Below are positions 1,368 through 39,639 of a stretch of 64,000 nt of DNA, piece after piece. The notes under the pieces are model-generated. The model was given only the letters and a program-made list of their open reading frames with translations. It did not search any database and had not been told where the DNA came from. Made by a program: the position numbers and the translations under genes. This DNA comes from Candidatus Woesearchaeota archaeon (GTDB taxonomy: Archaea > Nanobdellota > Nanobdellia > Woesearchaeales > GCA-023898365). Location of the stretch: assembly GCA_023898365.1 (NCBI GenBank), contig CP060219.1, forward strand, positions 133,743 through 197,742. Reading direction: 5' to 3'. Each line of letters starts with the position of its first letter. The first letter of the stretch is position 1.

Positions 1368-3563
1368 TTATGCTTCGTCACCAGTGGTGTCATCTTCTTC
1401 TTCTGCTGCAGGTGCAACATAAGGTGCGATGACTGGTGTGTCAGAACCATCTTGTAAGGAAACCATAACTTCGCTTCCAACAAGTTGTCCTGCGTACATG
1501 TCGTAGTTTGCAAGCGTTTGAGCTGCAAGCAAGGTGTCTTCTGCAGTATAACCTGCAACAAGAACTGCATTTTGAGTTCCGAAGAGCTTAATGCGTCCTA
1601 CACCTTGTTCAAAGCCTTCAACACAGTTAGCTGCTGTTACGCCAAGAAGGTCACGTGCAACAGTGTTTGCACATGGTCCGCCGACGACAAGCAAGTTTGT
1701 GTTACCAACAAGGCTTGCTCCAACACTATCCAAGACTCCAAGACCGACTGGGATTTGGTTCACAACATATGAACTTGCATCGCCAGCTGTGGTGGTCACA
1801 GTTGAACCCGACGTCGTAATGATGATGTGGGCTTCGACTTGGTCACTTGGAATGCTAAACTCGACTTTGTCACTATCAAGCTTGTTTTCTGGGTTGTAGA
1901 TAATTGCTCCATACTCAGTTAACAAGTCATAGTCACGAGCACCGATTGCGGTGGTGTCGTAGTACAAGTCCGTTCCGAGATTCTCATCGGTTGCACCAAT
2001 GGTGTAGGTTGCTCCTCGTAATGCATAACGTGCATTGATTCGGATGTTGTCCAATCCACCATCGTCGACAAAGGTGAAGTTACCTTCTGTTGCTCCGTTT
2101 CCAATTGTAACAACGTTAAAGTAATATTTAGCGTCGTTATTTTCAATGTACCACGTTGCAAGATTGTCTTGTGCAAGTGTTGATGCAAGGTCAGTCCAGC
2201 CATCGTCCTCATCGTAGTATGTCACGTTCAAACCATTAGACATGTTGGTTGGATCCGCAAGATACGCTCTGATCTTCTTTGACTGTGTTCCGCCAAGGTT
2301 GAATGCTTGTTCATCAGTTCCCGAAAGAGTAATTTCGAATCCTGGATGTCCCGTATTGTCTTCATCCTTAACTTCCTTTGCATCGACAACAACCTTAAAG
2401 CGATCGTCGTACTTCAAACTGTCGAACGTGACACTCACGTAGTCGTTAGGGAATGGAAGCACTCCACCAACACCGACCATTTCGAAGTAGTCTGCATCAA
2501 GCTCTTCTTCGGTTGCACCAACAACTTCCGACATAGCATTTGTCAACTGAACACCGACACGGTCAAGTGATGCTCCCGCATTGGTATCAATGTTCCAAAC
2601 CCATGGCGCATCTCCGGAATCGTACTCTGTGAAGAGTTCGAAGTCGTCACCGTCGTTTGCAGTCTTACCGCCTGTGTCTTCGCCGATTAATGCTTCAACA
2701 AAGTCGTCTGCATTATCATCTGCGTTGAACAAGGATTCAACTTTAATTTCGATGTCTCCGTAGGTTTCTGTGTTACCAGTGCTGATAACGTCTGAAACGC
2801 CATCTACTTTGATAACTGCGCTGGTGTCTCCAACATTGACAAGCTCAATTTCATGGCCTGCAACAGTAACTGGGTTGTCTCGTGTTAAGATCTCTGTTAC
2901 GGAGTTCTTGTACTTGATTCCCGTTGCAGTAATGTCGATGATTTCGAAAGATTCTCCAAGGAAGTCAAATTCGATGTTGTAATCTTCGTCGTCACTGACA
3001 CCCACACCAACAATTGATGCTTGGTCTGCTGCGTCAACTGCTACATAATATTCGTAGCCAGCTTCATTGACTTGCAAGTATGGATCAGCACCCATATCTT
3101 CTGCTTCAGATGCATAACCTAAGTTATACTGAACTGTCACACCAGAAATGTTCAAATACTCGCCGTAGTCAACGTCCGTGTCGTTGTAGTCGAATTGATC
3201 ATCTGCAAATCCTGCAAGGTCGCCGTCATCTAAGATACCGCTGGTACCGAATTGAACGGATAATGCCTGGCCGAATAAGAGATCTTCAACTTGACCGCCT
3301 TCAACAGTTGTTACACCATCTGTTGATTCATATCCTGTTTTTGCTGCGTACTGTAAGCTCGCCGCAATATCTACTGCGCCGATGACGTCCGAAACTGCTG
3401 CTTCTCCGCCAACAACGATTTTGCCGTTAAATACTCCATCAGTTACGAATGGTTCTGGATAATCTGCCAAACTTGCATATGCTCCCATTGCGGTTGCGCC
3501 AAGCATGACTGCTCCAATGCCAATCGTTCCGATTCGTTTCATAGTTTTTCCCAACTTACTCAT
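1368..3563 (-). CDS. Acidic secreted surface (S-layer-like) protein, 731 aa
   Basis: The N-terminal signal peptide MSKLGKTMKRIGTIGIGAVMLGATAMGAYA is preceded by the strong SD GGAGGTG. The protein is very D/E/T/V/G-rich with no internal TM and has an acidic C-terminus. No enzyme motif was recognised. Confidence 0.55.
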   Translation of the reverse strand: MSKLGKTMKRIGTIGIGAVMLGATAMGAYASLADYPEPFVTDGVFNGKIVVGGEAAVSDVIGAVDIAASLQYAAKTGYESTDGVTTVEGGQVEDLLFGQALSVQFGTSGILDDGDLAGFADDQFDYNDTDVDYGEYLNISGVTVQYNLGYASEAEDMGADPYLQVNEAGYEYYVAVDAADQASIVGVGVSDDEDYNIEFDFLGESFEIIDITATGIKYKNSVTEILTRDNPVTVAGHEIELVNVGDTSAVIKVDGVSDVISTGNTETYGDIEIKVESLFNADDNADDFVEALIGEDTGGKTANDGDDFELFTEYDSGDAPWVWNIDTNAGASLDRVGVQLTNAMSEVVGATEEELDADYFEMVGVGGVLPFPNDYVSVTFDSLKYDDRFKVVVDAKEVKDEDNTGHPGFEITLSGTDEQAFNLGGTQSKKIRAYLADPTNMSNGLNVTYYDEDDGWTDLASTLAQDNLATWYIENNDAKYYFNVVTIGNGATEGNFTFVDDGGLDNIRINARYALRGATYTIGATDENLGTDLYYDTTAIGARDYDLLTEYGAIIYNPENKLDSDKVEFSIPSDQVEAHIIITTSGSTVTTTAGDASSYVVNQIPVGLGVLDSVGASLVGNTNLLVVGGPCANTVARDLLGVTAANCVEGFEQGVGRIKLFGTQNAVLVAGYTAEDTLLAAQTLANYDMYAGQLVGSEVMVSLQDGSDTPVIAPYVAPAAEEEDDTTGDEA

Positions 3564-18293: not shown

Positions 18294-20267
18294 ATGAAAC
18301 AAGTTATTATGCTCATGACGTTGGTTGTTGTGCTTCTCTCATACGGAGTCATTGCAAGCCAAGGCGATCAGCACAGAACTGATCCAGACATCTCATTTAT
18401 TGCAGTGCTCGACGATGTGGCAAGCACACAAAGCACAACAGGAACACTTACTATTACCACTACGGGCGAAGCGACCTTTATTGTAACGCTTTCCGCGGGA
18501 ACACTTGAAGGAGCCTGCACCATTAGTGACATTTCTCTCTCACAAGAAGAATTTACCTTTGTGAATGCAAGCACAGAAGAAGTCAATATCAGCGTTTCCT
18601 TACCAGCATGTGCTGCCCGAGGAAACTACACGGGACACTTGTATGCTGACGTTGACATTACAACTAATGAAACTGGCTACATCTACACAGACAACATCTC
18701 AGTAACACTCGAAGTCCTTAATCGAGCACCAGTTATTCAAGCCATTGCAGACATAACTAACCAATCTGGAAGTGCGTTTAGCATGCAAGTTGAAGCATCA
18801 GACGTTGACGGAGATGACTTAACCTATTCACTGAGCGGCACCACCGCATTAAGTATTAATCAAGAGGGACTTCTTGTCGGCACAGTTCCAGAAGGAGCAA
18901 CCACCATCGAAGTGCAAGTAAGTGACGGCACTGTTAGCGTCAGCGACACCTTCGTGTTAACCGGCACGTACCAAGGTAAACGCTTACAAACAAGCACCGC
19001 AACTCTCTTTGTTGGGGGCCCAAGCCAAGACAGAGAAACGAACTTGAGTTTCAGTTTTACCTTAAGCAACACCGGCACAGAAACCATTACGAATTTGCTA
19101 TACGGAAACAATATTGACAGCGAATATGCATTTGCATTTACGAGTGGTCCTAGCTCTCTTGCCCCAGGAGCTCAAGCTCTAGTCACAGGATATATCTACA
19201 TTCCTGACTCTAAAGACTCTGAGCGAGAACAAATCGGCATCATTGCCATAGGAGACGAAACATCAATTCTTGTCACACTCCCAGTCGATATGCAAGCAGT
19301 TTCTGAAGCAGAAATTAAGAAGCTTAAAGTGGAAACCTCACTTGAAGAAGACACCAGCGTGCAAGATGATGAGAAAGTAAAAGCACGTATCGGAGACGAA
19401 GTGACAGTCACCATCACTGTTAAAAATAAATTTAATGAAAATATTGACTTCGAAGACATCACCATTACACTTATCAGCGAAGACTTAAATGATCTCGACG
19501 AAGAAGATAGTTTTGGCGACACCATCAGAGACGGCAAAGATGAAACATTCACCATGACCTTTGACATCGATGAAGATCAAAATGATGGCGAAAACAGAGT
19601 GACTGTTCTTGTTGAAGCTGAAGATGAAAATGGAGCCATCCACACTGTCGAGCAAGACTTCATTATTGATATTAATCAAGAAGATGAAGATTATCGTATT
19701 GATGGATTCACTTTGACGCCACTTACTGTGCAGTGCGGTGGAACGATGACGGTTCGCGCAGATATTGACAATATTGGTGCAGATGATGTTGATCGCGGCA
19801 TGGTTATTTTCAGTGTTGCAGATTTGAATATTGAGCGAGTCAACAACGATGTAAGCATTGATTTTGATGACTCAGACACCATCACGTTCAGTGTTCCAAT
19901 CCCTGCAAACGCTGCGCCAGGATCATATCTTGCAGAAGTTTCAGCATATATCGGCCTTGATCGAGATGATGATTTAACCGATTCTGAAGCAACACAATTT
20001 ATTGTGACGTGCAATGATGATCAGACGTCAACAAACAACAATAACAACCAACAGACGCAAGGAAACACCGGAAACTCAGGCATTGTCTTATTAGATCAAG
20101 ATAATGAAGCATTACAAGAGCTTGTCGGCGTTAGTGCAACAGGAACAGAAAGAAAGGACGCGTCAAGTGGCATTGACACAACAGAAGTGATTCTCTTCGC
20201 TCTTGTTGTTTTAATGATCATTGTGATCTTGCTTCTAGCTGTTAATCTTATGCGTCAAAAAAAGTAG
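18294..20267 (+). CDS. Large acidic surface protein with cadherin/Ig-like repeat signature and C-terminal TM anchor
   Basis: The protein has a signal peptide. The DVDGDDLTYSLSG motif is typical of dystroglycan-type cadherin-like or putative Ig domains. A T/N/Q-rich linker precedes the C-terminal TM ILFALVVLMIIVILLLAV and the basic tail RQKK. Confidence 0.6.
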   Translation: MKQVIMLMTLVVVLLSYGVIASQGDQHRTDPDISFIAVLDDVASTQSTTGTLTITTTGEATFIVTLSAGTLEGACTISDISLSQEEFTFVNASTEEVNISVSLPACAARGNYTGHLYADVDITTNETGYIYTDNISVTLEVLNRAPVIQAIADITNQSGSAFSMQVEASDVDGDDLTYSLSGTTALSINQEGLLVGTVPEGATTIEVQVSDGTVSVSDTFVLTGTYQGKRLQTSTATLFVGGPSQDRETNLSFSFTLSNTGTETITNLLYGNNIDSEYAFAFTSGPSSLAPGAQALVTGYIYIPDSKDSEREQIGIIAIGDETSILVTLPVDMQAVSEAEIKKLKVETSLEEDTSVQDDEKVKARIGDEVTVTITVKNKFNENIDFEDITITLISEDLNDLDEEDSFGDTIRDGKDETFTMTFDIDEDQNDGENRVTVLVEAEDENGAIHTVEQDFIIDINQEDEDYRIDGFTLTPLTVQCGGTMTVRADIDNIGADDVDRGMVIFSVADLNIERVNNDVSIDFDDSDTITFSVPIPANAAPGSYLAEVSAYIGLDRDDDLTDSEATQFIVTCNDDQTSTNNNNNQQTQGNTGNSGIVLLDQDNEALQELVGVSATGTERKDASSGIDTTEVILFALVVLMIIVILLLAVNLMRQKK

Positions 20268-20330
20268 GGTTGATTGTAAGCAGATTTTTTTTTAATTTTT
20301 TTCTTTCTCTTTCTTTTTGTTCCAGCCCTT
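20268..20330 (+). terminator. T-rich tract downstream of the surface-protein gene (terminator candidate)
   Basis: The tract ttttttttaatttttttctttctctttctttttg lies immediately after the stop codon. Confidence 0.35.
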
Positions 20331-21879
20331 ACAGAACAAAACACTTATATACACGATTCGTCCTTTTTTTCTCAGAATGGTGTTGTCGCAGAAAATTCTG
20401 CTTGGCCTCATCGCTGTTGTGAGCGTTACGTGTGTGTATCTTCTTATCGAAATAGTTTTTACGCCAACACTTACTGCTCATGTAATTACTGCATATGGCG
20501 GAGAAATAACCCAGATGAATGTCCATCTTGACACCGTGTATCAAAATGATTGGTGGTTTGCAGTCTATGGCAACATTACGAACACCACAAACAGCACAAA
20601 TATGACTACAAATTCTGCATCAAATGTTGTTGGCGCGACATTATATGTTAATTGGACGGCGTTTTTTGATAATCTTACTGAAGACCGGTATACTAATCTT
20701 AACTTATTTGCTTCAACGCATGAGAATCCAGATCTTACAAATCTTTGGCCCGTTCACCCCGCATGGGCAGATGTGCTTGTGTATGGATTTAACTGGCAAG
20801 ATGGTCGCTCAAATATGGGAACGTTTACCACGTTTCATGATTTCACCATAAACAGTCAGCTTCGTTCCTTATATAGCACGCGCACCAACAGCGTTGAAGG
20901 AGAGTATTGGGTGGGCATTGCGCGCGATGCAACAAACAATAAACCAGTCTTTGTAACTGAGATTGTAAATGGATCGGGATTTGATGGATCTCATGCAGAC
21001 TTCCAATTGATTCTTCCGGTCAACAGTACAAACATTACCTACTACTTTTCTTTTGCAAAAAAAATAGATGCTCTCTTGAATTGCACTGAAGACTTTGAAC
21101 TTAACGCCTCATTACTCGATGATAATCAGACGGTTCAGCTTAATTGGACAAATGTTACAGGAGCTACAAGTTATACGCTTTCTGTGCTTACGGGAAATGT
21201 AACAACCGCTCCTGATTTCAGAAATGCAACGAACAACTCGCTTGCAAACCCTTGGTTTACGTACGTTGATACAGGAACAGAAACTACCTTCTTTCAAGTG
21301 ACCGCCCATAAAGGCATTCAGTCATGCACCTATAACAACACGCTGGCAGGAATCTACAATATCAACACCTACGAAGGTCTCAATCTGGTAAGTGTTCCCG
21401 TCATTCCTGTTGATCCTACAATCGAAGAAGTGTTTAAGACCATTGATGAGTTATATGTTACCATTAATGAATATGACAACTCCATTCAAGATTATCATTT
21501 TTATATTCGTGTTGGCGGTTTTGTTTTTCAAGACTTTTACACCATCAATAAGGACTTTGGCTATTGGATGCTAACAGAAAATGCTGATGGCGTAGCTACA
21601 GTTGTTGGAGCAGTCACGCAACAAAAGAATGAAGCGTTACTCCCAGGAGTTAGCCTTGTCGTGTTCCCAACTCCTCCTGACGAAAATCACACCGTAGAAA
21701 ATAGATTTTCATCAGTGTTTCCAAATCTTTCTACTATTAACGAATATGAGAACAGCATCCACGATTATCACTTTTACATTCTTGTTTCAGGATTTGTGTT
21801 TCAAGACTTTTACAACGCGATTCCAACGAGAGGTTATTGGACGGTACTTACTGGTGCAGACACCATGGTGATTTCATGA
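20317..21879 (+). CDS. N-terminally anchored, heavily N-glycosylation-sequon-rich surface protein with internal tandem repeat
   Basis: The N-terminal TM is LGLIAVVSVTCVYLLIEIVF. More than 20 NxT/S sequons are present. Two copies of a ~50-aa unit occur: INEY(D/E)NSI(Q/H)DYHFYI.V.GFVFQDFY....GYW. Confidence 0.55.
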   Translation: MFQPLQNKTLIYTIRPFFLRMVLSQKILLGLIAVVSVTCVYLLIEIVFTPTLTAHVITAYGGEITQMNVHLDTVYQNDWWFAVYGNITNTTNSTNMTTNSASNVVGATLYVNWTAFFDNLTEDRYTNLNLFASTHENPDLTNLWPVHPAWADVLVYGFNWQDGRSNMGTFTTFHDFTINSQLRSLYSTRTNSVEGEYWVGIARDATNNKPVFVTEIVNGSGFDGSHADFQLILPVNSTNITYYFSFAKKIDALLNCTEDFELNASLLDDNQTVQLNWTNVTGATSYTLSVLTGNVTTAPDFRNATNNSLANPWFTYVDTGTETTFFQVTAHKGIQSCTYNNTLAGIYNINTYEGLNLVSVPVIPVDPTIEEVFKTIDELYVTINEYDNSIQDYHFYIRVGGFVFQDFYTINKDFGYWMLTENADGVATVVGAVTQQKNEALLPGVSLVVFPTPPDENHTVENRFSSVFPNLSTINEYENSIHDYHFYILVSGFVFQDFYNAIPTRGYWTVLTGADTMVIS

Positions 21880-22526
21880 AAACAATACTAGGCGCGATCT
21901 TATTTTTGCTATTTGTTGCAAGTAGCTTTGCATTTCTTCCCACACCGTTTAATATTGTTGGCACCTATTCTCCTGGCCAAACAGTCACCATCCAACTTGA
22001 AAGTGGGAATCAATTGTTCGAGAAAGAATTCGTTGTGAACGCTGAAGGGTATTATGCGGGCGTTATCTCACTTCCCAGCCAAGAAGATGTTTCAGTGCTT
22101 GTTCGCAATAGTGCAGGAGATATTATTTTTGAAAATGAGGATGTTAATCCATGGAATATGCACATATGGTATTTTGAAAACGGTAATGTTCGTGATGAAT
22201 CCATTCCTGTTGAAAAACCAATTGTTGACTCCTATTTTGTTGACGTAACAGCTCTTGCTCGAGAAACAGACCCCTCGAAACCTTCTCAGGAAACAAATGC
22301 ACTGCGTGATCAATACGCATTCGATATATCTGAACCTCCCGAGGAACTCCTGCAAGAACAGGATCCAACATTCATCATCAAGGGAAGTGCAGAGCACGTT
22401 TCAGGGTATAGTGACAAGACACCGTATTTGTTCATCGTTCTTCTTCTCTTTTTGCTTCTCTTAGTAAACACCTATATCAAGGACCGAGCAACTCCTTCTG
22501 AATTGTTTGAAGATAGATCTAACTAG
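21837..22526 (+). CDS. Surface protein with signal peptide and C-terminal TM anchor (true start probably the Met at 21876)
   Basis: The signal MKTILGAILFLLFVASSFA begins 13 aa into the ORF. The C-terminal TM is YLFIVLLLFLLLLVN. Confidence 0.5.
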   Translation: MDGTYWCRHHGDFMKTILGAILFLLFVASSFAFLPTPFNIVGTYSPGQTVTIQLESGNQLFEKEFVVNAEGYYAGVISLPSQEDVSVLVRNSAGDIIFENEDVNPWNMHIWYFENGNVRDESIPVEKPIVDSYFVDVTALARETDPSKPSQETNALRDQYAFDISEPPEELLQEQDPTFIIKGSAEHVSGYSDKTPYLFIVLLLFLLLLVNTYIKDRATPSELFEDRSN

Positions 22527-22694: not shown

Positions 22695-23246
22695 ATGAAA
22701 TTAACTAGCACGAAGACACTGCCCGTGCTCCTCTCCTTATTTGAATCATTCTCCTTCACACAAACAAGTATCCACGAAGCAACAGGCGTATCTCTTGGTC
22801 GCATCAACGCCATCCTCAAATGGCTTATCGACAAAGAAATCGTGATAAAAATGACAGGAACCTACGAACTCACTCAACCCAATCGGCTTGCAGAACTCAT
22901 CGCGACCGAACTCTCACTAAAAAAGCAACAATCATTCTACATCGACCTACCAAAAAAAGAAGCGCTAGAACTTGTTAGACAAACAAAAGCACAACTGTGT
23001 TCATTTAGCCTCGCAGGCGCATTCAAAAAAGAACTAGACACACCAGAAATCCATGCATTTGGAAATGAAAAATTAACAGCAAAACTCAAAACAATCCCTC
23101 GAGGAGAACACAAACTAAATCTCTACGAACCAAACAATCTCTCATCAGAAGAAACATTCACGTCACTTGTCATACAATTCTCAATCCTAGGACAAACCAA
23201 ACTCCTTGAAAAACAAATACTAACAAAATGGAAAACACTCCAATAA
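22695..23246 (+). CDS. Winged-helix (HTH) DNA-binding protein, putative transcription regulator
   Basis: The N-terminal ~70 aa (LPVLLSLFESFSFTQTSIHEATGVSLGRINAILKWLIDKEIVIKMTGTYELTQ) have the pattern of a wHTH of the TrmB/MarR/ArsR kind. The 3' end overlaps the start of the giant gene by 19 nt. Confidence 0.5.
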   Translation: MKLTSTKTLPVLLSLFESFSFTQTSIHEATGVSLGRINAILKWLIDKEIVIKMTGTYELTQPNRLAELIATELSLKKQQSFYIDLPKKEALELVRQTKAQLCSFSLAGAFKKELDTPEIHAFGNEKLTAKLKTIPRGEHKLNLYEPNNLSSEETFTSLVIQFSILGQTKLLEKQILTKWKTLQ

Positions 23247-26200
23247 AAAAAGAGGTGAACCGCGAGAGTGTTCTTGCACTACTCCTACTTCTAGTTCTCA
23301 CACTCCCTTCAATAACTGCACTCCCACTTAACTATGGAGGAAGCGTCATGGGAGAATGCCGCGAGTTTGCCATAGTCAACATGTCATTTTTCTCATCAGG
23401 AAATGTAGGCAATCCCGCGTTCAGGCTAGGAAGTCAATTAGCGTATGCCAACAGCGTAGGTGTCTTTGGAAATGCGACCTCCTACAACGAAATAACAAAT
23501 CCAACCGTGGACGTCCAATTTCGAGTAACAAACCCCTCCTGTAGCGCAAGCGCAACAGGAACAAACACCTCAACAGGACATAACCTTGCTAATCCAGCCA
23601 TATTCAACGTATTAAGTACAAACCCTGTAAGCCTTATTACCCCAATAAATGGCAATGCGCAAACAACAAATCTTACGGTCTTCGATTGGACGCACACGCA
23701 TCCAACCGCATCATACATGCTTCTTATCAGCAACACCACTAACTTCGCAGTACTTGAAAGAAATATTACGGGCATAGCAGCAACCACCTATACCTTCAAC
23801 AGTTCTGAAGCACTTAATGACGGCACGTATTATTGGCGCATCATGACCTACAACAGAACAGAATACATGGCAACTTCAAGCTACGCATCCTGGCAAGTAG
23901 CAGCAGGAGCCGCATCACTTACCAGTATCACCCCCGCAAATACCTCCTGGCAATCAAGCACCACTATTAGTGCAACCGTTATCACTAACATTCCAGCGAC
24001 ATGCGCCTATTCCCAAACATCAGGAAGTTATGCAAGTAAGACGCCCATGTCAAACACGGGTGGAACAACACACACTACCACGCTTACTGCATATCAAGAA
24101 GGAAGAAATTATTTCTACTTTCAATGTAACACCTCGGTTGTTAGTCAAGAACGAACCCATTACTTCCTCGTCGACACCACCGCTCCCGATAGAACTGCTG
24201 CAGTCCTTCACATAGAAAATGATGCAACATACACAAACGACACCACCCTTAGTCTTAACTGGTCAGGATTCAGTGACGGAACAAACGGAAGCGGCATTAA
24301 TCGCTATTACTATTCATTTACCAATTCGGGAGGAAGCGCAATTGGAACCTGGACAGGATTTACCACGATAACACTTGCAGGAGCAACGGAAGGAACCGAA
24401 CAAGTTTATGTGTGGGCAAGGGACGCTGCGGGAAACATAGGACTTGCAGCAACAGATTCCATCATAGTTGACACGACTCCCCCATCCATGGGAAGCTGGA
24501 GTACGAGTCCCGCCGACTTAACAAAGTACTCAACAGGAAGCTTCACAGTGACGGTCACCATTACCGATTCGACGCCCCTCAACGGACTTCCCCAATTCAG
24601 GTATAGAGTTGGAAATGATACCTACAGCGCATATGCTGCCACAACCAGCCTTGGCAGCGACAGATATCGATTCTCAATACCTGAAGGCAGCGGTGCAAAT
24701 TCGTGGTGGAACAGGGCAGGAGACTACGTGTACTACGACGTTATTGCGTACGATACTTTTAATGAGTTAACTAATCTTACCAGAAGTGAATTTATTAACA
24801 ATCAAACAACAGCACCGGTCTTTCACAGCATAAGCGCAAAAAGTATGCTTGAAGACACGACCCTTACCTTTAACTTAACAGGAGTTGACGTTGATTTTAA
24901 TTATCTGACGTACGGCATTGTTACCAACACAACAGACCTTGATTACACCATCACCGCAATCAACGCCACGAGAAGTAGCGTAAGCATCAGTGCAGAAAAT
25001 GATGATGTTGGAACGCACACCTTGCAATTTTATGTTACTGACCAAATCTATACGATTTATCGCAACGTCACCCTTACCGTTATCAACGTCAATGATGCGC
25101 CCGTTCTTTCATCAATTGGAAACCTCGTAGGTTACCAAGGAGCTTATTTCAATCTAACGCTTAACGCATCAGATGTGGATGATACCACACTCATCTTCTC
25201 ATCAAACTCAACTTTTTTTAGCGTTAATCCAATAACTGGTCACTTCGGATTCACGCCGCTCGCATCAAACAGAGGAGTACACTCACTTGTCTTTCGTGTT
25301 CGTGATGGCAGCAATGCAGAAGATAACGAGACCGTGACGTTCACTGTAAATTACTGCGGCAACAATATTTGCGAAGCAGCTTATGAAACCTGCGGTCGCT
25401 GCGCTGTAGATTGTGGGGTGTGCGGTGATGAAGAATCCAAAGCCCTCCTTATTGAACCAGTAAACTGCGTCAATAAAACAATGACAATAGAAGTTGCAAA
25501 ACTTGTCGAGCGAGGAACTTGCTATCCACGAGGAGAAATTATTCGCAACATGGAAGTATGTGGAAGAATCGCAAGCGAAACCATATCAGTCAGTGTCTAC
25601 GATGAAGATGTCTGGGTGGAACTTGAAGAAGTAACAAGCGACGTTACTGGCGCAATCAGTTGGACACCAACAGAAGTAGGACTGCACAAACTCTCCTTTT
25701 CATCAGGAAGTTATGAAGAAGTCGAATTTACCACAAACTATTGCGGCAAAGAAGAAACTAGTTCGAGCGTTACGCAAACAAGTGATGAAGAAACAGACAA
25801 TACGAAAAAAAACACAGGATCAGACGCGACTTCGCCAACCGCCCCTGATAGGAACGCTTCGCTTGATGGAAACAGCAGATGGTTCTGGTGGACATTATTT
25901 ACCATCTTATTCTTACTTGCGGCCTATCGCATCATAAAACTTGCCTACATTAATTTGGTGCGATCAAACAAAACAAACATATTTGTCAAGTCAGTGGATT
26001 GGTTAATCAAGCTCTACTTCCTTGCAAGCATTCAAACAAACCAATTCCTTGACGATAATCCAAAAGTAAAACATCAAGTGAAAAAGATGAAACGAGCTTT
26101 GCACACAGGAATTGAGTTTTCTGCAGCACTCGCTGCCTCGCTTAAAGCAAGACTTAACTTATTTACTAAAGTCAATGTGCCCTTTTTTGCCATGAATGGA

Positions 26201-26572
26201 GAAGGAGAAGCATCTCTTCTTGTCGCCATATCATTAATGAAAATGAACAGCAAGGATTCGCTTGGCACTTTGTTCGACCGTCTCGGAGGAGCAAAAGTGC
26301 ACACTCTCCAAGCATTATGCGCCACACTTCGCGCACAAGGCATTAATGCCATGTTACGTACAGGAACACTGATCGACATCAAGACAGGTATTGACATGAA
26401 CGAAGCATGCGTTCTTGACAATGGTAAAACAAGACTTATCATCATGGGATATGATACGAATGTTGTCTATGCCCACGACTACGAAAACGGCATCAAATGC
26501 AGGAAAATACCTGATGACGATCTTGAGCGCAATTGGAATGGCGCATTCATTGCAGTAAAAAAAAGAAGGTAG
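23228..26572 (+). CDS. Giant (1114 aa) surface protein: signal peptide, multiple Ig/cadherin-like beta domains, Cys-rich DUF4215-like motif, single TM, cytoplasmic C39 peptidase-like (degenerate) C-terminal domain
   Basis: The signal peptide is LALLLLLVLTLPSITA. The protein is T/S/N-rich with many NxT/S sequons. A Cys cluster NYCGNNICEAAYETCGRCAVDCGVCG is present. The TM WFWWTLFTILFLLAAYRIIKL is followed by about 210 aa. The pattern ...ASLLVAISLM...RLIIMGYDTNVVYAHDYENG...WNGAFIAV resembles the C39 bacteriocin-processing peptidase domain, but the catalytic Cys and His are replaced. Confidence 0.6.
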   Translation: MENTPIKKEVNRESVLALLLLLVLTLPSITALPLNYGGSVMGECREFAIVNMSFFSSGNVGNPAFRLGSQLAYANSVGVFGNATSYNEITNPTVDVQFRVTNPSCSASATGTNTSTGHNLANPAIFNVLSTNPVSLITPINGNAQTTNLTVFDWTHTHPTASYMLLISNTTNFAVLERNITGIAATTYTFNSSEALNDGTYYWRIMTYNRTEYMATSSYASWQVAAGAASLTSITPANTSWQSSTTISATVITNIPATCAYSQTSGSYASKTPMSNTGGTTHTTTLTAYQEGRNYFYFQCNTSVVSQERTHYFLVDTTAPDRTAAVLHIENDATYTNDTTLSLNWSGFSDGTNGSGINRYYYSFTNSGGSAIGTWTGFTTITLAGATEGTEQVYVWARDAAGNIGLAATDSIIVDTTPPSMGSWSTSPADLTKYSTGSFTVTVTITDSTPLNGLPQFRYRVGNDTYSAYAATTSLGSDRYRFSIPEGSGANSWWNRAGDYVYYDVIAYDTFNELTNLTRSEFINNQTTAPVFHSISAKSMLEDTTLTFNLTGVDVDFNYLTYGIVTNTTDLDYTITAINATRSSVSISAENDDVGTHTLQFYVTDQIYTIYRNVTLTVINVNDAPVLSSIGNLVGYQGAYFNLTLNASDVDDTTLIFSSNSTFFSVNPITGHFGFTPLASNRGVHSLVFRVRDGSNAEDNETVTFTVNYCGNNICEAAYETCGRCAVDCGVCGDEESKALLIEPVNCVNKTMTIEVAKLVERGTCYPRGEIIRNMEVCGRIASETISVSVYDEDVWVELEEVTSDVTGAISWTPTEVGLHKLSFSSGSYEEVEFTTNYCGKEETSSSVTQTSDEETDNTKKNTGSDATSPTAPDRNASLDGNSRWFWWTLFTILFLLAAYRIIKLAYINLVRSNKTNIFVKSVDWLIKLYFLASIQTNQFLDDNPKVKHQVKKMKRALHTGIEFSAALAASLKARLNLFTKVNVPFFAMNGEGEASLLVAISLMKMNSKDSLGTLFDRLGGAKVHTLQALCATLRAQGINAMLRTGTLIDIKTGIDMNEACVLDNGKTRLIIMGYDTNVVYAHDYENGIKCRKIPDDDLERNWNGAFIAVKKRR

Positions 26573-26577
26573 AATCA

Positions 26578-26742
26578 ATGCAAACAAAAGCTAAAGATGC
26601 TGACTTGTGGAAGTTAGGCTTTCTAGGTTTCCTTGGCATGCTTGGCTTACTAGGAATCGCAACAGACAATCCAGGATTTATGGGCTTCTTTGGTTTCTTT
26701 GCCTTTTTTGCATTCTTTGGACTTAAGAAATCAAACACATAA
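26578..26742 (+). CDS. Small Gly/Phe-rich double-TM membrane peptide (54 aa)
   Basis: The SD-like GAAGGT lies 8 nt upstream of the ATG. The translation is MQTKAKDADLWKLGFLGFLGMLGLLGIATDNPGFMGFFGFFAFFAFFGLKKSNT. It lies immediately downstream of the giant gene. Confidence 0.45.
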   Translation: MQTKAKDADLWKLGFLGFLGMLGLLGIATDNPGFMGFFGFFAFFAFFGLKKSNT

Positions 26743-26814: not shown

Positions 26815-28008
26815 CTAATACACATAATCCATCAAATATACAACTGCACTATCAGATTGGGGAAACACAGAAAGAAGGGTTATTTCATAGCCGAAGAATT
26901 GTTCTGTTTGACCAATAGTGAGAACATCAGACTGTGAACGACCATAGGCATCAGTTACCCTGAGCACAGCAGAATTATTATTTGTAGCATTAAGCACCAC
27001 TTCATGATCAAGGAAGAACGCAGGTTGGTGTTCGACAAGCGTGACGTTTATCATTTGTGTTGGGGGAGGTAAGAGTTCGTAAGTTAAATCTGCAATTTCT
27101 GCATTATGTTCTAAACCAAGCGCGTCAACGCCAGATAAAGATAAAAGATAAGTTCCCTCGTTTTGATCGCCCCACGGATAACTTTGATCTGCCCATTGGG
27201 TGTACGTGTAGGTTGGCACGGGAAGGGAAAGCGTTCGATAGTAATGGTTGACCCCAATATTTGTTTCTCTTAGTCCATCTACTTGGCCAAAACTTGATTG
27301 CCAAGAAGTATCAAGATAGGTTAATGGTGTTGAGACTTCGTAATTGAACGTGATGTTAACAAGTGCACCAGGAGGTAAGAGAAGTGCAGGTTCTGAAAAT
27401 GGAGGAGTAACTTGGTGAACTTCTCCCGTAACAAAATTGGTGATGCGAACGCGTTGAATCTGCATGAACAATTCGTTTTCTCGAGCATAAAGCCATTCGT
27501 TTACAAAATTGTTTTGAGAATCAATATCCTGCTTATTTAGTAAAGATGCCTCAATATAATAAGAGGAATTTGTTTCGTTGGTAAAGTTGCACACTCCAAG
27601 TTCTTGGAGAACAGTAACCTCATCACCTTGACGAAGTGTTTGAGAAAAGACGAGGTTTGACGTAGTGAGTTCGTCCGATTGCGGGCAGCCACTAATAAGC
27701 TCATAACGAGAACCTGCAGCAATAACTGAAGAACCTACATTTGCGAATTTGATGCGAGCTTGAGGAACGGGATTGGCTGGATCGATTCGGTGATCGAAGT
27801 TAACTGTTTCTATGGCTAAATCATACAGCCTTGTTGGGGCAATTTCTTCCCCACCAGGCAGCCTCGTTTGAGCAGCCACGTCAACACGCAACGCGTTTCC
27901 TGCAAGATTACCGTCTTGTTGTGAAAAGAAAGCTAAGAACACACCTACAAGAGCAACTAGTCCGACAAGACCAACAAATCCAAAAAATGACGAATTATGC
28001 GATATCAT
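26815..28008 (-). CDS. N-terminally anchored surface protein, 397 aa
   Basis: The N-terminal hydrophobic segment is HNSSFFGFVGLVGLVALVGVFLAFF. The remainder is beta-rich with no recognised motifs. Confidence 0.5.
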   Translation of the reverse strand: MISHNSSFFGFVGLVGLVALVGVFLAFFSQQDGNLAGNALRVDVAAQTRLPGGEEIAPTRLYDLAIETVNFDHRIDPANPVPQARIKFANVGSSVIAAGSRYELISGCPQSDELTTSNLVFSQTLRQGDEVTVLQELGVCNFTNETNSSYYIEASLLNKQDIDSQNNFVNEWLYARENELFMQIQRVRITNFVTGEVHQVTPPFSEPALLLPPGALVNITFNYEVSTPLTYLDTSWQSSFGQVDGLRETNIGVNHYYRTLSLPVPTYTYTQWADQSYPWGDQNEGTYLLSLSGVDALGLEHNAEIADLTYELLPPPTQMINVTLVEHQPAFFLDHEVVLNATNNNSAVLRVTDAYGRSQSDVLTIGQTEQFFGYEITLLSVFPQSDSAVVYLMDYVY

Positions 28009-35169: not shown

Positions 35170-37032
35170 TTATTGCTTTTTAACCTTCTGTTTTAACCGA
35201 GCAATCATGTCTTCGCTTTGTTTAATCCGCTCATAGCGCTGTTGACGAAGAGCATCTTCCTGAGAAGCAAAAGTGGCCTGCGCTGCAACCACCTCTTTTT
35301 TTGCAAGGTCATCAATAGGAGGGGCAGCACCACCACCCGATCTCGAAGAAGAAATGTGAGATTTCAACGCCTTCGTTCGTTCATGCATCTGCTTAAGTGA
35401 TCGCACTTGTTTTCGTTTAGAGGAAGAAAAATAATTTGCAGGAAGCAAATAGACAAGGAGAAACAAAATAACTGATGCAAGACCAACCAATTCAAACCAA
35501 TGAATGGCAAGTAGGGCGATGCGAGACTCGATGATATTTACTAACAAAATTGTGGAACGCACAGAAGACATAGGAACTCCAAAAACACTCGGCAACGTAT
35601 TTAACACATCTTCAGAATCAGTAACATAAGAAGTGATCCACGATTCACCCTGATCGATACGATCAACCACCCAAACACCCTTCTTGGTGAACGGTTGAGA
35701 AATCTCTCTAAATTCAGCAGACTCCGGAATCAACTCTTTAACAACAAGATCTTCCAACGGACTTTCTCCCAAATTCAACAAATTAAGTGTGACGCGAATC
35801 TCATCTTGCGTAATGTACGCGACACTCTTTTGCACGAAGAGTTTTTTCTCAGGAATATATTGGCGAATGAACGGCAATGACGAGCTATACACCCTGTTTT
35901 TCCCATAAACAAATTCTCCAGCAGGGAAAAAATCAACACCTAACGAATCTTCATCAACATATTTGATCGCGTATTCGACCCGTTTTGACTTTCGAGGATT
36001 TAACGACATATCCCACGTAAGTGTTGAACCATCAGCATTCTTTGTTCCTTCGCCCGTATCAATAATTTCAAAACCCGAAGGAATCTCATCAGTGAGTTTT
36101 CCTGAAACAAGAAGCGGATCAAAATTATTCAAAATAAGTTTGACGTCAATAACGTCTCCTGGTAAGACTTGTGTTGAAGAAACAGTTTTTCTTAAAAACA
36201 CATTATTCAAAAGGAAGCTATTAAAGAACACATCTCGTCCAGTCCCATTTACTGAGGCATTCAAACTGTAATTAATCAAATCATCTTCAGTAAAGAGAGA
36301 AATATTGTTTGTTCTATTATACACGAACTGAGAGGCATCAAGAAACACGTCCGCTTGAAGCCAATAAATCTCCCCTTCGACCACTTCTTCATCGAAAAAA
36401 TCCTTCGCGTAAAATTCGCCAGGGCCAATTTGAGTAACCTCTCCTGTAAAATCCCACGATTCGAGTTCACGCGTAATATCCAAATCAGATGTTTTCGTCA
36501 CTTTAAATAAATCAAGTGTTAAATTAAAACTTGTTGGATTCTCAAAATGAACACTGATTAATCTTCTATCACGGCCAGTGATTGCTTCAACTTCTGGTTC
36601 GTTTTTGAGAAGTTGACCGAACACATCAGTGTAGACTTCGGGTTCTTCTTGGAAGATGCCACCTGCAAGAATAGGTTCCCCATCAACAATAGGATTAATC
36701 GACGTAATACCCAAAATATTGTAACTGAGTGAAATTGAGCTTTGCGGTTCAATACTAAAAATTATCAATCCTTGCGACGTCATCAATTGACCTGAAGAAG
36801 TTGCATTAGAGCGAAGTTCAAGACCAAACAAATTATACGGTATGTTAAGATTGTTAAGCGTGACTTCTTCTTGGTTATATATAGTGATTACTCCATCAAC
36901 ATTGACAACATAAAAATCATCGTAGAAACTTGTAATCTTGCCCGATTCGACAATATCAAAGACTATAGTACCTGCCGTTGCAAAAGGAAGGAGAAAAATG
37001 GCAAGAGTGAAAAAAAGAACAAACCATTTCAT
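35170..37032 (-). CDS. Type I membrane protein: large ectodomain, one TM, cytoplasmic coiled-coil tail
   Basis: The signal peptide is MKWFVLFFTLAIFLLPFATA. The TM LVGLASVILFLLVYLL is followed by a ~110-aa K/R/Q-rich helical tail. The gene makes a 4-nt overlap with the upstream gene. Confidence 0.5.
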   Translation of the reverse strand: MKWFVLFFTLAIFLLPFATAGTIVFDIVESGKITSFYDDFYVVNVDGVITIYNQEEVTLNNLNIPYNLFGLELRSNATSSGQLMTSQGLIIFSIEPQSSISLSYNILGITSINPIVDGEPILAGGIFQEEPEVYTDVFGQLLKNEPEVEAITGRDRRLISVHFENPTSFNLTLDLFKVTKTSDLDITRELESWDFTGEVTQIGPGEFYAKDFFDEEVVEGEIYWLQADVFLDASQFVYNRTNNISLFTEDDLINYSLNASVNGTGRDVFFNSFLLNNVFLRKTVSSTQVLPGDVIDVKLILNNFDPLLVSGKLTDEIPSGFEIIDTGEGTKNADGSTLTWDMSLNPRKSKRVEYAIKYVDEDSLGVDFFPAGEFVYGKNRVYSSSLPFIRQYIPEKKLFVQKSVAYITQDEIRVTLNLLNLGESPLEDLVVKELIPESAEFREISQPFTKKGVWVVDRIDQGESWITSYVTDSEDVLNTLPSVFGVPMSSVRSTILLVNIIESRIALLAIHWFELVGLASVILFLLVYLLPANYFSSSKRKQVRSLKQMHERTKALKSHISSSRSGGGAAPPIDDLAKKEVVAAQATFASQEDALRQQRYERIKQSEDMIARLKQKVKKQ

Positions 37033-37739
37033 TCTGCACCCTTCTTTCGAAACGTAAAAACTGTTTTACCTAAGACGAGCACGATAACAATCAACCAAAA
37101 GATGTTTACCGCCCTAATCTTATCGTTTCTAAAGAAGGGAATAATCGAGTATTCAAAACTCAAACGCTCAGTTGGACCCCATTCGAGCAAAGTTGATGAG
37201 CCTTCTGAAGAAACAAGGGCATCAGGGGCGAACGTTACATGATATTTCTTTGGCAAGACAAACGAGGTCGTCTCAACTTTCCGTGGAATGGTAGTGTGCT
37301 CAGCAGGAATATCAATGCCATAGAATAAGATGCCTCGAGGCTTAAAATCTAACCAGTACGTCATAGTCACATCATAATAAAATTGTGGCAAAAGAGGATC
37401 CCAAATGGTAAACACAAGATCGGTAAAATCTGTTCCGGGAACAATCTTAGTATCTAGTCGTTGATCAAATTTGTTTTTTACGACAAATTCTGAGGCGCCA
37501 ATTGATTCTTCACGATCACCACCACTTACTAACTTTGAAAGTTTGAAATGAATCTCACCAGGAATAATAGGATTGTCGCCAACATTCTTGAGGCGAATTT
37601 CTTTTTGTACAAGAATTTTTCCATCTTCTAAAGAGTAAGTGGTTTGATAATTATCAAAAACAACAACTTCAGCAGAAACTTGAGATAGAGTGATAAGTAG
37701 GGAGAATAACAAAACCAGTAACGTAATTGATGTTCTCAC
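37029..37739 (-). CDS. Surface protein with signal peptide and C-terminal TM anchor, 236 aa
   Basis: The signal peptide is MRTSITLLVLLFSLLITLSQVSA. The C-terminal TM IFWLIVIVLVLG is followed by RKKGAE. Confidence 0.5.
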   Translation of the reverse strand: MRTSITLLVLLFSLLITLSQVSAEVVVFDNYQTTYSLEDGKILVQKEIRLKNVGDNPIIPGEIHFKLSKLVSGGDREESIGASEFVVKNKFDQRLDTKIVPGTDFTDLVFTIWDPLLPQFYYDVTMTYWLDFKPRGILFYGIDIPAEHTTIPRKVETTSFVLPKKYHVTFAPDALVSSEGSSTLLEWGPTERLSFEYSIIPFFRNDKIRAVNIFWLIVIVLVLGKTVFTFRKKGAE

Positions 37740-37794
37740 GGAACTTTACACCCCCAAAGTTGAAAAAATGAAAATAAAAAAAAATTGGAAGAAC

Positions 37795-39639
37795 CTATTT
37801 GTACTTCCTTAGCTTATGATTGATCTGCCTAGTCATCAACACGTTTGCTACATTGATCGCGATCAAAAACACCACGAGGCCAACATAGAACAATTCTCTT
37901 GTTCGCGTGCCAAGGACCGATCTCATCAAAATAGCTTCCGAACCACCAGCTCCATCAACTTTACGAGGGTCCAATCCTACAATGTAAAGTTCAGACGCAC
38001 GATAGTCACCGGATCCGTTTACCCAGTAACTCACATTCCAAGTCCTGTTATTGTATGACTCACTGATTGGACCAAGAGATGAGTTGTAAGGATTCTTCAA
38101 TGGAATATTCCATTGATGAGTCGTACCGTTAAACTCGGTGTTGGTAACGTTGGCGGACGCGTCTGGCGTTCTACTATACGTATAGTTGAATGGCGTGAAT
38201 TCTGAAGGCACGAAGTCGTAGACCGTGACCACTAAGTGTTGTGGCGTCCAGTCATTTCCAATGTTTTCAACTAAGATGTCAATGCGATATTGATCTTCGT
38301 ATGTTGAAACAACATCCTTATGCACTTCAAGCCAGTAGCCATTTACCACGTAGATGTACTTCATATAATAATCGTTGCCATTTCTCGTATATGTCGAGTT
38401 TAAAATTTGATTATAGGCGTTGATTATGTTGAAGTAAGGCAACATCCACACAACAGGTGGTGGAGAAGTTACCGGATCACTTCCGTCGGTAAAGTTAAAT
38501 TCCCATGCAGTGCTTAAGTAACCTGTTGACAAGTTGATTTCTTGATTTGGATACACCGTTGAGTTGAGTAATCCAAAGTCAGTCGTTCGGTTCGTCATAT
38601 TAAGCGTTGTTGTAACCCACATAGATAATTTTGTCAAGCGGTAAGCAATGTTAATTGGCGTGGTAACATTAGACCGCGCTTCCCACGTCACATTTGTATT
38701 GTTCTCATTATCTGCAGGCTGCACAATTCTTTTTGTTAAGTGATCATGTGCTTGCGCAGAAGCAATAACTGAATCTAAAGAGAGGTTAGATGCTAAATAG
38801 GAAATATTGTATCTAAGCGTCTCAGTGATTGCCTTGTACGTATCTGACGTTGGAACATTGTTTGGCGCAGTCACATTGTACTGAATCCAGACAGTTTCGC
38901 CAGGAACTAAGGTTCCTGCACTCGCTTGCCAATACCAACTCGTGTTACTTGTTCCATTCCCGTGGAGATTAGCAAAATCTCCAAGCTCGTAGAGTTCGTC
39001 AAGAGAGAACAAACTGTTTGTTCCATTCCATAAAATACCATTAACTTGGATAGAAATATTAATATCATTTACATTCTGGCCGACAGCTAAAACGTTGCTT
39101 GCTGATTGATTAACTTGCCAAGTGTGACCAGCAAGAACCTTCCTGTTAAATCCATGTTCGACATTTCCATAAGAAGTGTTAATATCTAATGGTGGTTGAA
39201 CTGAACCACAAGACATATTATAGTTAAACGTTGAAAAATTTCCTGCTCGAAGTTGAGGAATATGAACTTGAAAGACATCTCCTGGAGCAGAACCAAGAGT
39301 TTGCGAACCGTATCTTCCTGCAATGAGTGTGAAATTCGTACTCATTGTGTCCGTGTTCGAGAAGTTAATATAGATATCATCTACCGTGTCCGGACTTGGA
39401 TTAGTCACGTTGAGAATTCCAATGATCTCACATGTTGTCGTTGATTCCGTTAAATAAAAATTTTCTGCGTAGGTAACATTCTGATTGACTGTTTCAACCA
39501 ATGAAATGTTAATCCTTGTCGGAAGCGCTGAAGCCACCGACATAAATAGCAATCCTAACACTAAGAGAAAAATAGCTCGTCTCACCTTGGTCACCTTTGT
39601 ATATCTTTGAAAACGAATAGTTTCATGCGAGCAACACAC
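37795..39639 (-). CDS. Large N-glycosylation-sequon-rich surface protein with C-terminal TM anchor, 614 aa
   Basis: The protein has a signal peptide. More than 40 NxT/S sequons are present. The C-terminal TM LFYVGLVVFLIAINVANVLM is followed by a basic tail. Confidence 0.55.
   Translation of the reverse strand: MCCSHETIRFQRYTKVTKVRRAIFLLVLGLLFMSVASALPTRINISLVETVNQNVTYAENFYLTESTTTCEIIGILNVTNPSPDTVDDIYINFSNTDTMSTNFTLIAGRYGSQTLGSAPGDVFQVHIPQLRAGNFSTFNYNMSCGSVQPPLDINTSYGNVEHGFNRKVLAGHTWQVNQSASNVLAVGQNVNDINISIQVNGILWNGTNSLFSLDELYELGDFANLHGNGTSNTSWYWQASAGTLVPGETVWIQYNVTAPNNVPTSDTYKAITETLRYNISYLASNLSLDSVIASAQAHDHLTKRIVQPADNENNTNVTWEARSNVTTPINIAYRLTKLSMWVTTTLNMTNRTTDFGLLNSTVYPNQEINLSTGYLSTAWEFNFTDGSDPVTSPPPVVWMLPYFNIINAYNQILNSTYTRNGNDYYMKYIYVVNGYWLEVHKDVVSTYEDQYRIDILVENIGNDWTPQHLVVTVYDFVPSEFTPFNYTYSRTPDASANVTNTEFNGTTHQWNIPLKNPYNSSLGPISESYNNRTWNVSYWVNGSGDYRASELYIVGLDPRKVDGAGGSEAILMRSVLGTRTRELFYVGLVVFLIAINVANVLMTRQINHKLRKYK

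Follow-up and report, generated by a model that had tools for sequence, protein, structure and literature searches.

Evidence for a degenerate C39-like domain as the cytoplasmic tail of a woesearchaeal surface protein, and its linkage to a winged-helix regulator gene

Woesearchaeota and other DPANN archaea are believed to spend their lives attached to host cells, and large surface proteins are prime candidates for that attachment. What might such a protein be doing with roughly 200 residues on the inner side of the membrane? The question is raised by a 1114-amino-acid (aa) protein encoded in a 64,000-nucleotide stretch of a Candidatus Woesearchaeota genome (contig CP060219.1, positions 133,743 to 197,742; the whole of this stretch is termed ‘the window’ here, and coordinates are those of the window unless another locus is named). 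The answer offered below is that the tail is very probably a cytoplasmic pseudo-peptidase of the C39 fold, and that its most likely role, judged from that fold, is that of a protein- or peptide-binding module at the inner membrane face. The overall reading, a cytoplasmic pseudo-peptidase binding module that possibly tethers a winged helix-turn-helix (wHTH) regulator, is the one that we favor, with moderate confidence.

The protein and the parts of it that matter for the argument are as follows.

23228..26572, + strand: 1114-aa type I membrane surface protein (NCBI H6502_01000, Candidatus Woesearchaeota metagenome-assembled genome; open reading frame (ORF) call, database identity)
23228..23326, + strand: signal-peptide-like N-terminal segment, a basic n-region and then an h-region, LALLLLLVLTLPSITAL (hydropathy scan)
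23327..25879, + strand: ectodomain with immunoglobulin (Ig)-like modules, a Cys-rich module and a Ser/Thr/Pro/acidic stalk (Pfam and NCBIfam matches, Cys columns, sequon count)
25880..25948, + strand: single transmembrane anchor (aa 885-907), with the basic residues RIIK...RSNK behind it (hydropathy, flank charge)
25979..26155, + strand: predicted juxtamembrane cytoplasmic helical hairpin, aa 918-976, of two long helices (tail residues 11-36 and 38-69; AlphaFold model)
26165..26569, + strand: predicted cytoplasmic C39-like (papain-fold) pseudo-peptidase domain, aa 980-1114 (PDB profile, Pfam on orthologs, hhalign, AlphaFold, Foldseek)
26201..26215, + strand: site where the nucleophile has been lost, E992-G-E-A-S996, at the N-terminal end of the first core helix (hhalign, alignment columns, model)
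26429..26431, + strand: Thr1068, at the position of the catalytic His; the family has T/A/T/S/S/S/S/S/N (hidden Markov model (HMM) alignment to 3ERV, hhalign to ComA His96, nine-tail alignment)
26474..26479, + strand: His1083-Asp1084, the Asp corresponding to the catalytic Asp of C39 (ComA Asp112; hhalign, nine-tail alignment)

Topology, fold and catalytic state of the tail

A Kyte-Doolittle scan of the 1114 residues finds only two hydrophobic segments, one at aa ~10-37, for which every relative has an N-terminal equivalent, and the transmembrane segment WFWWTLFTILFLLAAYRIIKLAY at aa 885-907, beyond which a tail of 207 residues begins at aa 908. The ectodomain, about 850 aa long, contains Ig-like modules recognized by Pfam and NCBIfam (Big_9, tandem-95 and cadherin-like, aa ~540-708) and a Cys-rich module (aa 710-778) whose Cys columns are invariant in the ortholog alignment. 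Potential glycosylation sites are distributed unevenly over the protein, with 26 NxS/T sequons in the ectodomain, one in the flank of the transmembrane segment and none in aa 926-1114, and Lys is distributed in the opposite sense (1.2% of the ectodomain, 9.0% of aa 926-1114, 9.2% of the whole tail). The same asymmetry between outside and inside recurs in all 11 relatives examined, which have 1.8-3.9 sequons per 100 aa outside and 0-0.8 inside (1.9 inside for the relative at locus L008), and 1.2-2.7% Lys outside against 7.5-23% inside; in the window protein and its relatives the transmembrane segment has a basic flank on its inner side and a mostly acidic one on its outer side.

Because a single transmembrane segment follows the signal peptide, and because the inner flank is basic and the tail poor in sequons and rich in Lys, the tail is with high probability cytoplasmic (single-pass, N-out, C-in), and the ectodomain is probably heavily N-glycosylated. 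A preliminary description of the locus, made from the letters alone, had already placed a domain of about 200 aa behind a single transmembrane segment in the cytoplasm, and hydropathy, flank charge, sequons and Lys content agree with it; the span that it had singled out (25973-26742) covers exactly aa 916-1114 and a small downstream ORF that is discussed below. A second transmembrane segment within the hairpin, which would flip the topology, was considered and rejected: the hydropathy threshold is reached there by the ortholog at L007 only, the other orthologs having a charged segment.

The fold of the tail cannot be read from the window sequence by itself. That sequence matches nothing in Pfam or NCBIfam at E <= 10, nothing in the PDB (phmmer) and nothing in a word-indexed search of 5.8 billion proteins. 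When the word-indexed search was given a six-sequence alignment of tails it did not recover even the six source proteins, and a negative from it is no evidence of absence. When 1.84 billion representative proteins were searched exhaustively with phmmer, the protein recovered itself and, beyond that, only P0002, a spurious repeat protein dismissed on inspection. A prediction made by AlphaFold from the single sequence was unusable (predicted local distance difference test score, pLDDT, of 41). Full-length orthologs do exist (P0003-P0007, and L006-L008 from GTDB genomes), with 29-37% identity to the 1114-aa protein, and the phmmer search with the tail missed them because the similarity of the tail is, by itself, too weak; in the alignment the ortholog tails are only 17-24% identical to that of the window. 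The check that the preliminary description had set for its C39 idea, a profile search with aa 900-1114 alone, gave no C39 signal, and on that search the idea would have failed.

It survives once the orthologs are included. A profile of the tails has a single significant match in the PDB, to 3ERV (‘putative C39-like peptidase’), at E 1.1e-5 when built from six sequences and 1.3e-5 when built from nine (75 profile columns). Two Pfam families give weak, sub-threshold matches to ortholog tails and none to that of the window: DUF3335 (PF11814, ‘Peptidase_C39 like family’), matched by five of the nine tails (best E 4.4e-4), and Peptidase_C39_2 (PF13529), matched by one (E 0.013). Peptidase C39 proper (PF03412) matches neither the window tail nor any of the nine at E <= 10. 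Comparison of the tail profile by hhalign with a reference alignment of C39 domains (ComA from two species, PCAT1 and the C39-like domain (CLD) of HlyB, each sequence checked to be identical to its PDB entry) aligned 108-120 columns, at pairwise E values of 4e-4 to 8e-4 and a probability of 25-35%.

An AlphaFold model computed from a six-sequence alignment (m8e89ea93bf56) reached a pLDDT of 79.8 overall and about 85 in its alpha/beta core. When it was compared with the PDB by Foldseek, the best 40 matches were all C39 or other papain-like structures, led by 3ERV (5e-6) and followed by LahT (6MPZ, 8e-6), PCAT1 (6V9Z, 9.5e-5), ComA (3K8U, 1.7e-4, with the highest target TM, 0.70), HlyB (8DCK, 6.7e-4) and the HlyB CLD (3ZUA, 2.3e-3); 3B79 was also matched. 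Sequence profile, Pfam matches of the orthologs and fold search agree as three independent lines, and support the assignment of aa 980-1114, in part on a modelled structure, to the C39-type papain fold. The domain evolves quickly (mean pairwise identity 31%, against 44% for the ectodomain and 20% for the hairpin, the fastest-evolving part), and the tail is kept in every one of the nine long-form orthologs despite that low identity.

The residues on which a C39 peptidase depends have mostly disappeared. At the nucleophile position, hhalign sets Cys17-Gly18 of ComA on Glu992-Gly993 in one run and extrapolates Cys17 to Ala995 in a second, leaving the register ambiguous; the modelled core helix starts at aa 994, and across aa 992-996 (tail positions 85-89) the nine-tail alignment contains no conserved Cys or Ser. 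At the position of the catalytic His, the HMM alignment sets the E-H-C-V-V-L-I-G-Y-D of 3ERV opposite K-T-R-L-I-I-M-G-Y-D in the window. The catalytic Asp is largely retained (Asp1084, D in eight of nine members and N in one), and directly before it lies His1083, which is invariant in all nine and specific to this family, canonical C39 domains having Ala, Gly or Arg there. Only Leu998, His1083 and Trp1103 are invariant among the nine tails. An alternative catalytic dyad of Cys1061 and His1083 was considered and rejected: Cys1061 is invariant in six sequences and is replaced by Ala in L006 and by Ala or Gln, depending on register, in L008.

As read from these alignment columns, the domain is catalytically dead throughout the family, both Cys and His having been lost in every member; it can therefore be no cysteine protease. 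The degeneracy claimed by the preliminary description is thus borne out in all nine tails, while the particular replacements that it named are not. It had the nucleophile Cys replaced by Ser, and Ser996 only neighbors the site (Glu992 or Ala995) and is not conserved; it had Leu or Ile in place of the His, and that column aligns to Thr1068. The motif strings that it quoted are all found in the tail, EASLLVAISLM at aa 994-1004, RLIIMGYDTNVVYAHDYENG at aa 1069-1088 and WNGAFIAV at aa 1103-1110.

Relation to known C39 and papain-like domains

Inactive C39-like domains, of which the HlyB CLD is the example, bind unfolded or peptide ligands. By function, that CLD is the closest known case to the tail described here; by sequence, the closest are the stand-alone families Peptidase_C39_2 and DUF3335. 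The CLD of Escherichia coli HlyB (3ZUA) and the window domain share a cytoplasmic location, a C39-type papain fold and the loss of the nucleophile Cys. They differ in position and in the residues kept: the HlyB domain sits at the N-terminus of an ABC transporter and keeps its His (as verified in the sequence), whereas the window domain would close a single-pass surface protein, as its C-terminal tail, and lacks the Cys and the His alike. The precedent of HlyB is that of a binding module rather than a protease, one that belongs to an ABC transporter and binds the secretion substrate; no fused or adjacent ABC transporter was found here, and neither an ABC transporter nor a peptidase-containing ABC transporter (PCAT) is present among the 39 ORFs of the window that were scanned against Pfam, all ORFs longer than 300 aa included.

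The active C39 peptidase domains of PCATs (ComA 3K8U, PCAT1 4RY2, LahT 6MPZ; PF03412) have the same fold (target TM 0.65-0.70), and their C-terminal strand motifs align with those of the tail (G-x-D...(D)-x-x-x-G...P...W-x-G). Only the fold and the Asp are shared with Peptidase C39 proper; the catalytic Cys and His are missing, as is the ABC fusion, and the family HMM gives no match. Nor did inspection by eye (no motif scan was run) find an obvious double-glycine leader in the small ORF downstream or in the sequences of the wHTH proteins encoded upstream. Among the stand-alone relatives (PF13529, with 3ERV, and PF11814), 3ERV has a His at the catalytic position where the window tail has Thr1068.

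In the literature, C39-like families are placed in cluster I of the papain-like proteins, and the stand-alone ones are described as soluble, single-domain proteins or as fused to GNAT domains; the same source has inactive papain-like domains commonly acting as scaffolds (PMC10318531). A stand-alone archaeal C39-like protein with an intact Q-C-H motif has been reported to have glycosidase instead of peptidase activity (PMC13642728), and a bacteriocin-like locus from DPANN, with an active C39 peptidase and peptides bearing double-glycine leaders, has also been described (PMC6393860). Literature searches turned up no account of an archaeal surface protein with a C39-like domain for its cytoplasmic tail, and the pseudo-C39 domain is here in a new architecture, lineage and genetic context. 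The binding role suggested for the tail is inferred from its fold and from the precedent of inactive papain-like domains.

Candidate partners of the tail and rival explanations

What, then, might the tail bind? The gene directly upstream and the small ORF directly downstream are the two candidates that the locus itself offers, and a conserved set of surface-protein genes lies further away.

22695..23246, + strand: 183-aa wHTH protein (NCBI H6502_00995), an N-terminal wHTH and an uncharacterized C-terminal domain of ~110 aa (Pfam on orthologs)
26565..26569, + strand: Shine-Dalgarno-like GAAGG, 8 nucleotides (nt) upstream of the ATG of the small ORF (sequence)
26578..26742, + strand: 54-aa Gly/Phe-rich membrane peptide of two segments, MQTKAKDADLWKLGFLGFLGMLGLLGIATDNPGFMGFFGFFAFFAFFGLKKSNT (ORF, DUF3796 match, codon usage)
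35170..39639, - strand: triple of surface-protein genes, for a DUF11 protein (620 aa), a protein of 236 aa and a glycoprotein of 614 aa that has a signal peptide and is anchored at its C-terminus (tblastn)

The preliminary description had looked for a partner downstream and had overlooked the wHTH gene, the 3' end of which (K-W-K-T-L-Q-stop) overlaps the start of the surface-protein gene by 19 nt (A-TGG). Orthologs of the wHTH protein, 32-38% identical, are encoded directly upstream of the surface protein at L002, L003, L004, L006, L007, L008, L033 and L034, and the wHTH stop overlaps the ATG of the large gene at eight of nine tail-bearing loci and at L033; the overlapping end of the protein reads ...W-x-T-x-Q-stop. 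The wHTH assignment is itself derived from these orthologs, six of seven of which match each of the Pfam families HTH_24 and TrmB (best E 2.3e-7); NCBIfam gives only sub-threshold matches of MarR or Sso10a type, and a PDB profile search only a weak match of MarR type. A scan of metagenomes with the wHTH alignment returned one short contig only, L033. Counted over loci where both features can be read, the wHTH gene stands upstream at eight of nine tail-bearing loci and at none of three short-tail relatives (L010, L011 and L035; Fisher p = 0.018).

On the strength of this translational coupling, seen at nearly all tail-bearing loci, we infer that the wHTH regulator is the likeliest ligand of the tail; that the tail does tether it is a tentative proposal, to which we give something over one chance in four. 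In such a scheme the tail would couple the surface protein to a cytoplasmic partner, for which the wHTH regulator of ~185 aa is the best candidate, and would hold or release that regulator as the ectodomain changes state, for instance on contact with a host cell. The outcome would be the sequestration of a transcription factor at the membrane, by a logic like that of BlaR1/BlaI, PtsG-Mlc and the anti-sigma factors, to none of which the window pair would be homologous.

BlaR1/BlaI and MecR1/MecI are pairs of a membrane sensor and a winged-helix repressor, and PtsG-Mlc and the anti-sigma factors are cases of membrane sequestration of regulators. What the window pair has in common with pairs of the BlaR1/BlaI type is the co-transcription of two genes, one for a membrane sensor that has an extracellular part and, in the cytoplasm, a domain of protease type, the other for a small winged-helix regulator; the likeness is a functional analogy only, without homology, and what is shown for the window pair is the linkage of its genes. 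The cytoplasmic domain of BlaR1 is an active zinc metalloprotease that cleaves BlaI, whereas that of the window protein is, on the evidence above, a dead papain-fold module, and sequestration rather than cleavage would therefore be the mechanism. Carried one step further, the wHTH regulator and the surface protein might form an undescribed, two-component-like device for contact sensing in DPANN, in which engagement of the glycosylated ectodomain, with a host cell surface for example, shifts the hold of the tail on the regulator and so switches the expression of the neighboring surface-protein genes; a dead fold for binding bacteriocin leaders would here serve anew, tethering a transcription factor to the membrane. 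This extension is speculative, and we would put it at about one chance in five.

Several observations weigh against these proposals. As regards the fold, the hhalign probabilities are modest (25-35%), the window sequence alone gives no C39 match and the assignment leans on a model built from a six-sequence alignment. As regards the regulator, the correlation between tail and wHTH gene is confounded by phylogeny, the short-tail proteins forming a clade of their own; L005 has the tail but a 52-aa AbrB-like gene in place of the wHTH gene, and the short-tail locus L011 also has an AbrB-like gene upstream, so that an upstream DNA-binding gene does not strictly track the tail. Moreover, a regulator gene commonly lies beside its target without any physical interaction between the products.

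The AbrB/SpoVT-like genes (L005, 4846-5004; L011, 5621-5911) are small DNA-binding genes that overlap the start of the surface-protein gene, as replacements for the wHTH gene, so that even without the latter the surface protein has a DNA-binding gene coupled to it. The short-tail sister clade (L010, 3794-6727; L011, 5908-8265; L035 / P0008) consists of proteins of 785-977 aa with a Lys-rich cytoplasmic tail of ~47 aa, which ends in ...LGYDK in two members, and it has neither the C39-like domain nor the wHTH gene. Upstream of its surface-protein gene lies a gene for a Gly/Ser-rich membrane protein in L010 and L035 (as also in L009), or the AbrB-like gene in L011.

The alternative that survives best gives the pseudo-peptidase tail a structural or anchoring role and makes the wHTH protein simply the local transcription factor of the operon, a reading that we hold to be possible at about one chance in four. 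The tail might then form dimers, dock onto the membrane, or have as its ligands cytoskeletal or secretion factors, or the tails of surface glycoproteins from the same cluster. The setting is in keeping with it, since the pair sits in a conserved neighborhood of surface glycoproteins: orthologs of the 620-, 236- and 614-aa triple (33-65% identity) are found 2-3 kb downstream of the large gene, on the opposite strand, at L002, L004, L005, L006 and L007. In the window the triple is only loosely linked, and its best-conserved member, the 614-aa protein, has no Pfam or PDB match. The tail without a wHTH gene at L005, the rapid evolution of tail and hairpin (20-31% identity), which would fit a loosely constrained scaffold, and the common use of inactive papain-like domains as scaffolds (PMC10318531) also favor a structural module. 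However, the short-tail relatives that have no C39-like domain have no wHTH gene either, which suggests that domain and gene travel as a pair; the overlap of stop and start persists at ~30-38% identity, which argues for stoichiometric co-expression; and the analysis turned up no specific structural partner. The genes upstream of the wHTH gene, encoding proteins of 657, 520 and 229 aa, were also considered as conserved neighbors and rejected, since tblastn shows the conserved triple to be the set at 35170-39639.

We turn now to the small downstream ORF, which the preliminary description had paired with the C39-like domain for signaling or quality control, or as the relic of a peptide-export system. 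The ORF is present as described, with its ATG at 26578, the end of its stop at 26742 and GAAGG before it, and only 5 nt separate it from the stop of the large gene. It also looks like a gene. The peptide matches Pfam DUF3796 (PF12676) at 26.8 bits (gathering cut-off 24.8, E 7.4e-6), over profile positions 2-44 of 120 only, and the match was lost in nine of nine shuffles of the hydrophobic core, showing that it depends on residue order and excluding an artefact of composition; against the WGxxGxxG family (NCBIfam NF041742) the score is 15 bits, below the cut-off of 35. Its codon-usage score, 0.325 bits per codon, stands at the 66th percentile of in-frame 54-codon windows from the window's own genes and exceeds that of every off-frame window (antisense ORF, 0.09), and its only internal repeat is a short one of 9 nt in 3.8 copies. 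The likeness to the small membrane proteins of the DUF3796 and WGxxGxxG families, both of unknown function, lies in a W-x-x-G-F-L-G-F-L-G... hairpin with a periodic Gly/hydrophobic pattern; the full DUF3796 profile describes ~120 aa, and the 54-aa peptide covers its first third only. C39 domains, moreover, bind peptides by precedent, complexes of PCAT1 and LahT being among the fold matches.

The pairing of peptide and domain, whether for signaling, quality control or recognition of a peptide substrate, is nevertheless improbable. No similar ORF lies 3' of the large gene, or elsewhere, in the orthologous loci (L002-L008), where the downstream neighbors differ each time (a convergent gene, a HIT protein, an unrelated 96-aa ORF, a DUF5654 protein), and with this absence, which the preliminary description had itself named as refuting, the partnership loses its support. 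The peptide has no double-glycine leader, and, being almost wholly hydrophobic, would expose little to a cytoplasmic domain. It has never been annotated publicly as a gene: it is missing from a collection of 15 billion proteins and uncalled as a gene on the Logan contig, and tblastn finds no match to it in plasmids or viral contigs. The idea of an export relic finds no ABC transporter or PCAT in the scanned ORFs of the window to go with it. Judged by sequence, the peptide is probably a real, DUF3796-like gene particular to the locus in this genome, and probably a small membrane-protein gene unrelated to the tail, sitting by chance in an intergenic gap. The convergent neighbor beyond it (26815-28008, - strand) encodes a 397-aa protein with an N-terminal transmembrane segment that has a periodic G-x-x pattern (FFGFVGLVGLVALVGVF), as has the peptide. 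Pfam does not match this neighbor, and the related loci contain no ortholog of it. A tblastn search of the window with the 397-aa protein gave 90.8% identity over 436 columns, reaching 28125, beyond the listed ORF, and resembles a gapped self-alignment.

It is less probable still that the domain remains an enzyme, acting on a cytoplasmic substrate through non-canonical residues such as His1083 and Asp1084. An invariant His beside a retained Asp, and the glycosidase activity reported for an archaeal C39-like protein (PMC13642728), would lend this idea some appeal; but the three invariant residues (L998, H1083 and W1103) include no candidate nucleophile, Cys1061 is replaced in L006 and L008, and the Q-C-H motif of the reported glycosidase is absent.

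Least probable of all, and dismissed here, is that the tail is an effector of the polymorphic-toxin type (by the logic of CdiA or Rhs) with the small downstream ORF as its immunity gene: Foldseek does match papain-like toxins as well (CdiA-CT 8SSK, 4e-4; the toxin/immunity pair 9L5U, 1.6e-3), small downstream ORFs do differ between loci and the tail does diverge faster than the ectodomain, but the catalytic Cys and His are missing in all nine members, the preceding transmembrane anchor would keep the domain in the cytoplasm of its producer, the tails are homologous among orthologs rather than exchanged for unrelated folds, the aligned region before the tail showed no evident pre-toxin demarcation motif (no dedicated motif search was run), and the downstream ORF is not conserved, several loci having no co-oriented downstream ORF at all.

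Other genes of the window and the significance of the tail

Among the genes nearby in the window are those for a leucyl-tRNA synthetase of archaeal type and a tRNA-guanine transglycosylase of the TGT family (Pfam PF01702). A second set of three surface-protein genes with a similar layout, the 657-, 520- and 229-aa genes mentioned above, occupies 18294-22526 (+ strand) and, unlike the triple, has no clear orthologs beside the pair of wHTH and surface-protein genes at other woesearchaeal loci; tblastn detects no similarity between it and the triple at 35170-39639, and the two may be diverged paralogs or unrelated. At 1368-3563 (- strand) lies the gene for a 731-aa protein with an S_layer_C domain (PF05124, E 1e-12), a candidate S-layer protein, and at 61186-63906 (- strand) a 906-aa ORF with a Transgly domain (PF00912, E 4e-11), which is of the glycosyltransferase-51 type found in peptidoglycan synthases. 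Such a domain would not be expected in an archaeon, and murein-like synthesis or horizontal transfer in DPANN could account for it. The 1114-aa protein has no counterpart in viral contigs. Several of the contigs among L006 and L008-L011 are titled ‘uncultured Methanosarcinales archaeon’; their loci are otherwise typical of Woesearchaeota/Nanoarchaeota, and the title is probably a placeholder or a mis-assigned taxon.

A practical lesson of the analysis is that a domain of this kind can be invisible to single-sequence searches, even of 1.84 billion proteins, and yet emerge from a profile of orthologs combined with structure prediction. Should the tail prove to be only a structural stub, the result would be a modest improvement in annotation. 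To our knowledge, pseudo-peptidases of the C39 type have until now been known as N-terminal modules of bacterial ABC exporters; the domain described here would extend their range to an archaeon, to the C-terminus of a single-pass membrane protein and to the loss of both Cys and His. We know of nothing on how events at the surface are relayed into DPANN cells. It is unusual for such a surface protein to carry a folded cytoplasmic domain that is kept in at least nine divergent genomes and is genetically coupled to a DNA-binding protein, and the surface protein and its wHTH neighbor together offer a concrete, testable candidate for outside-in signaling in these archaea.

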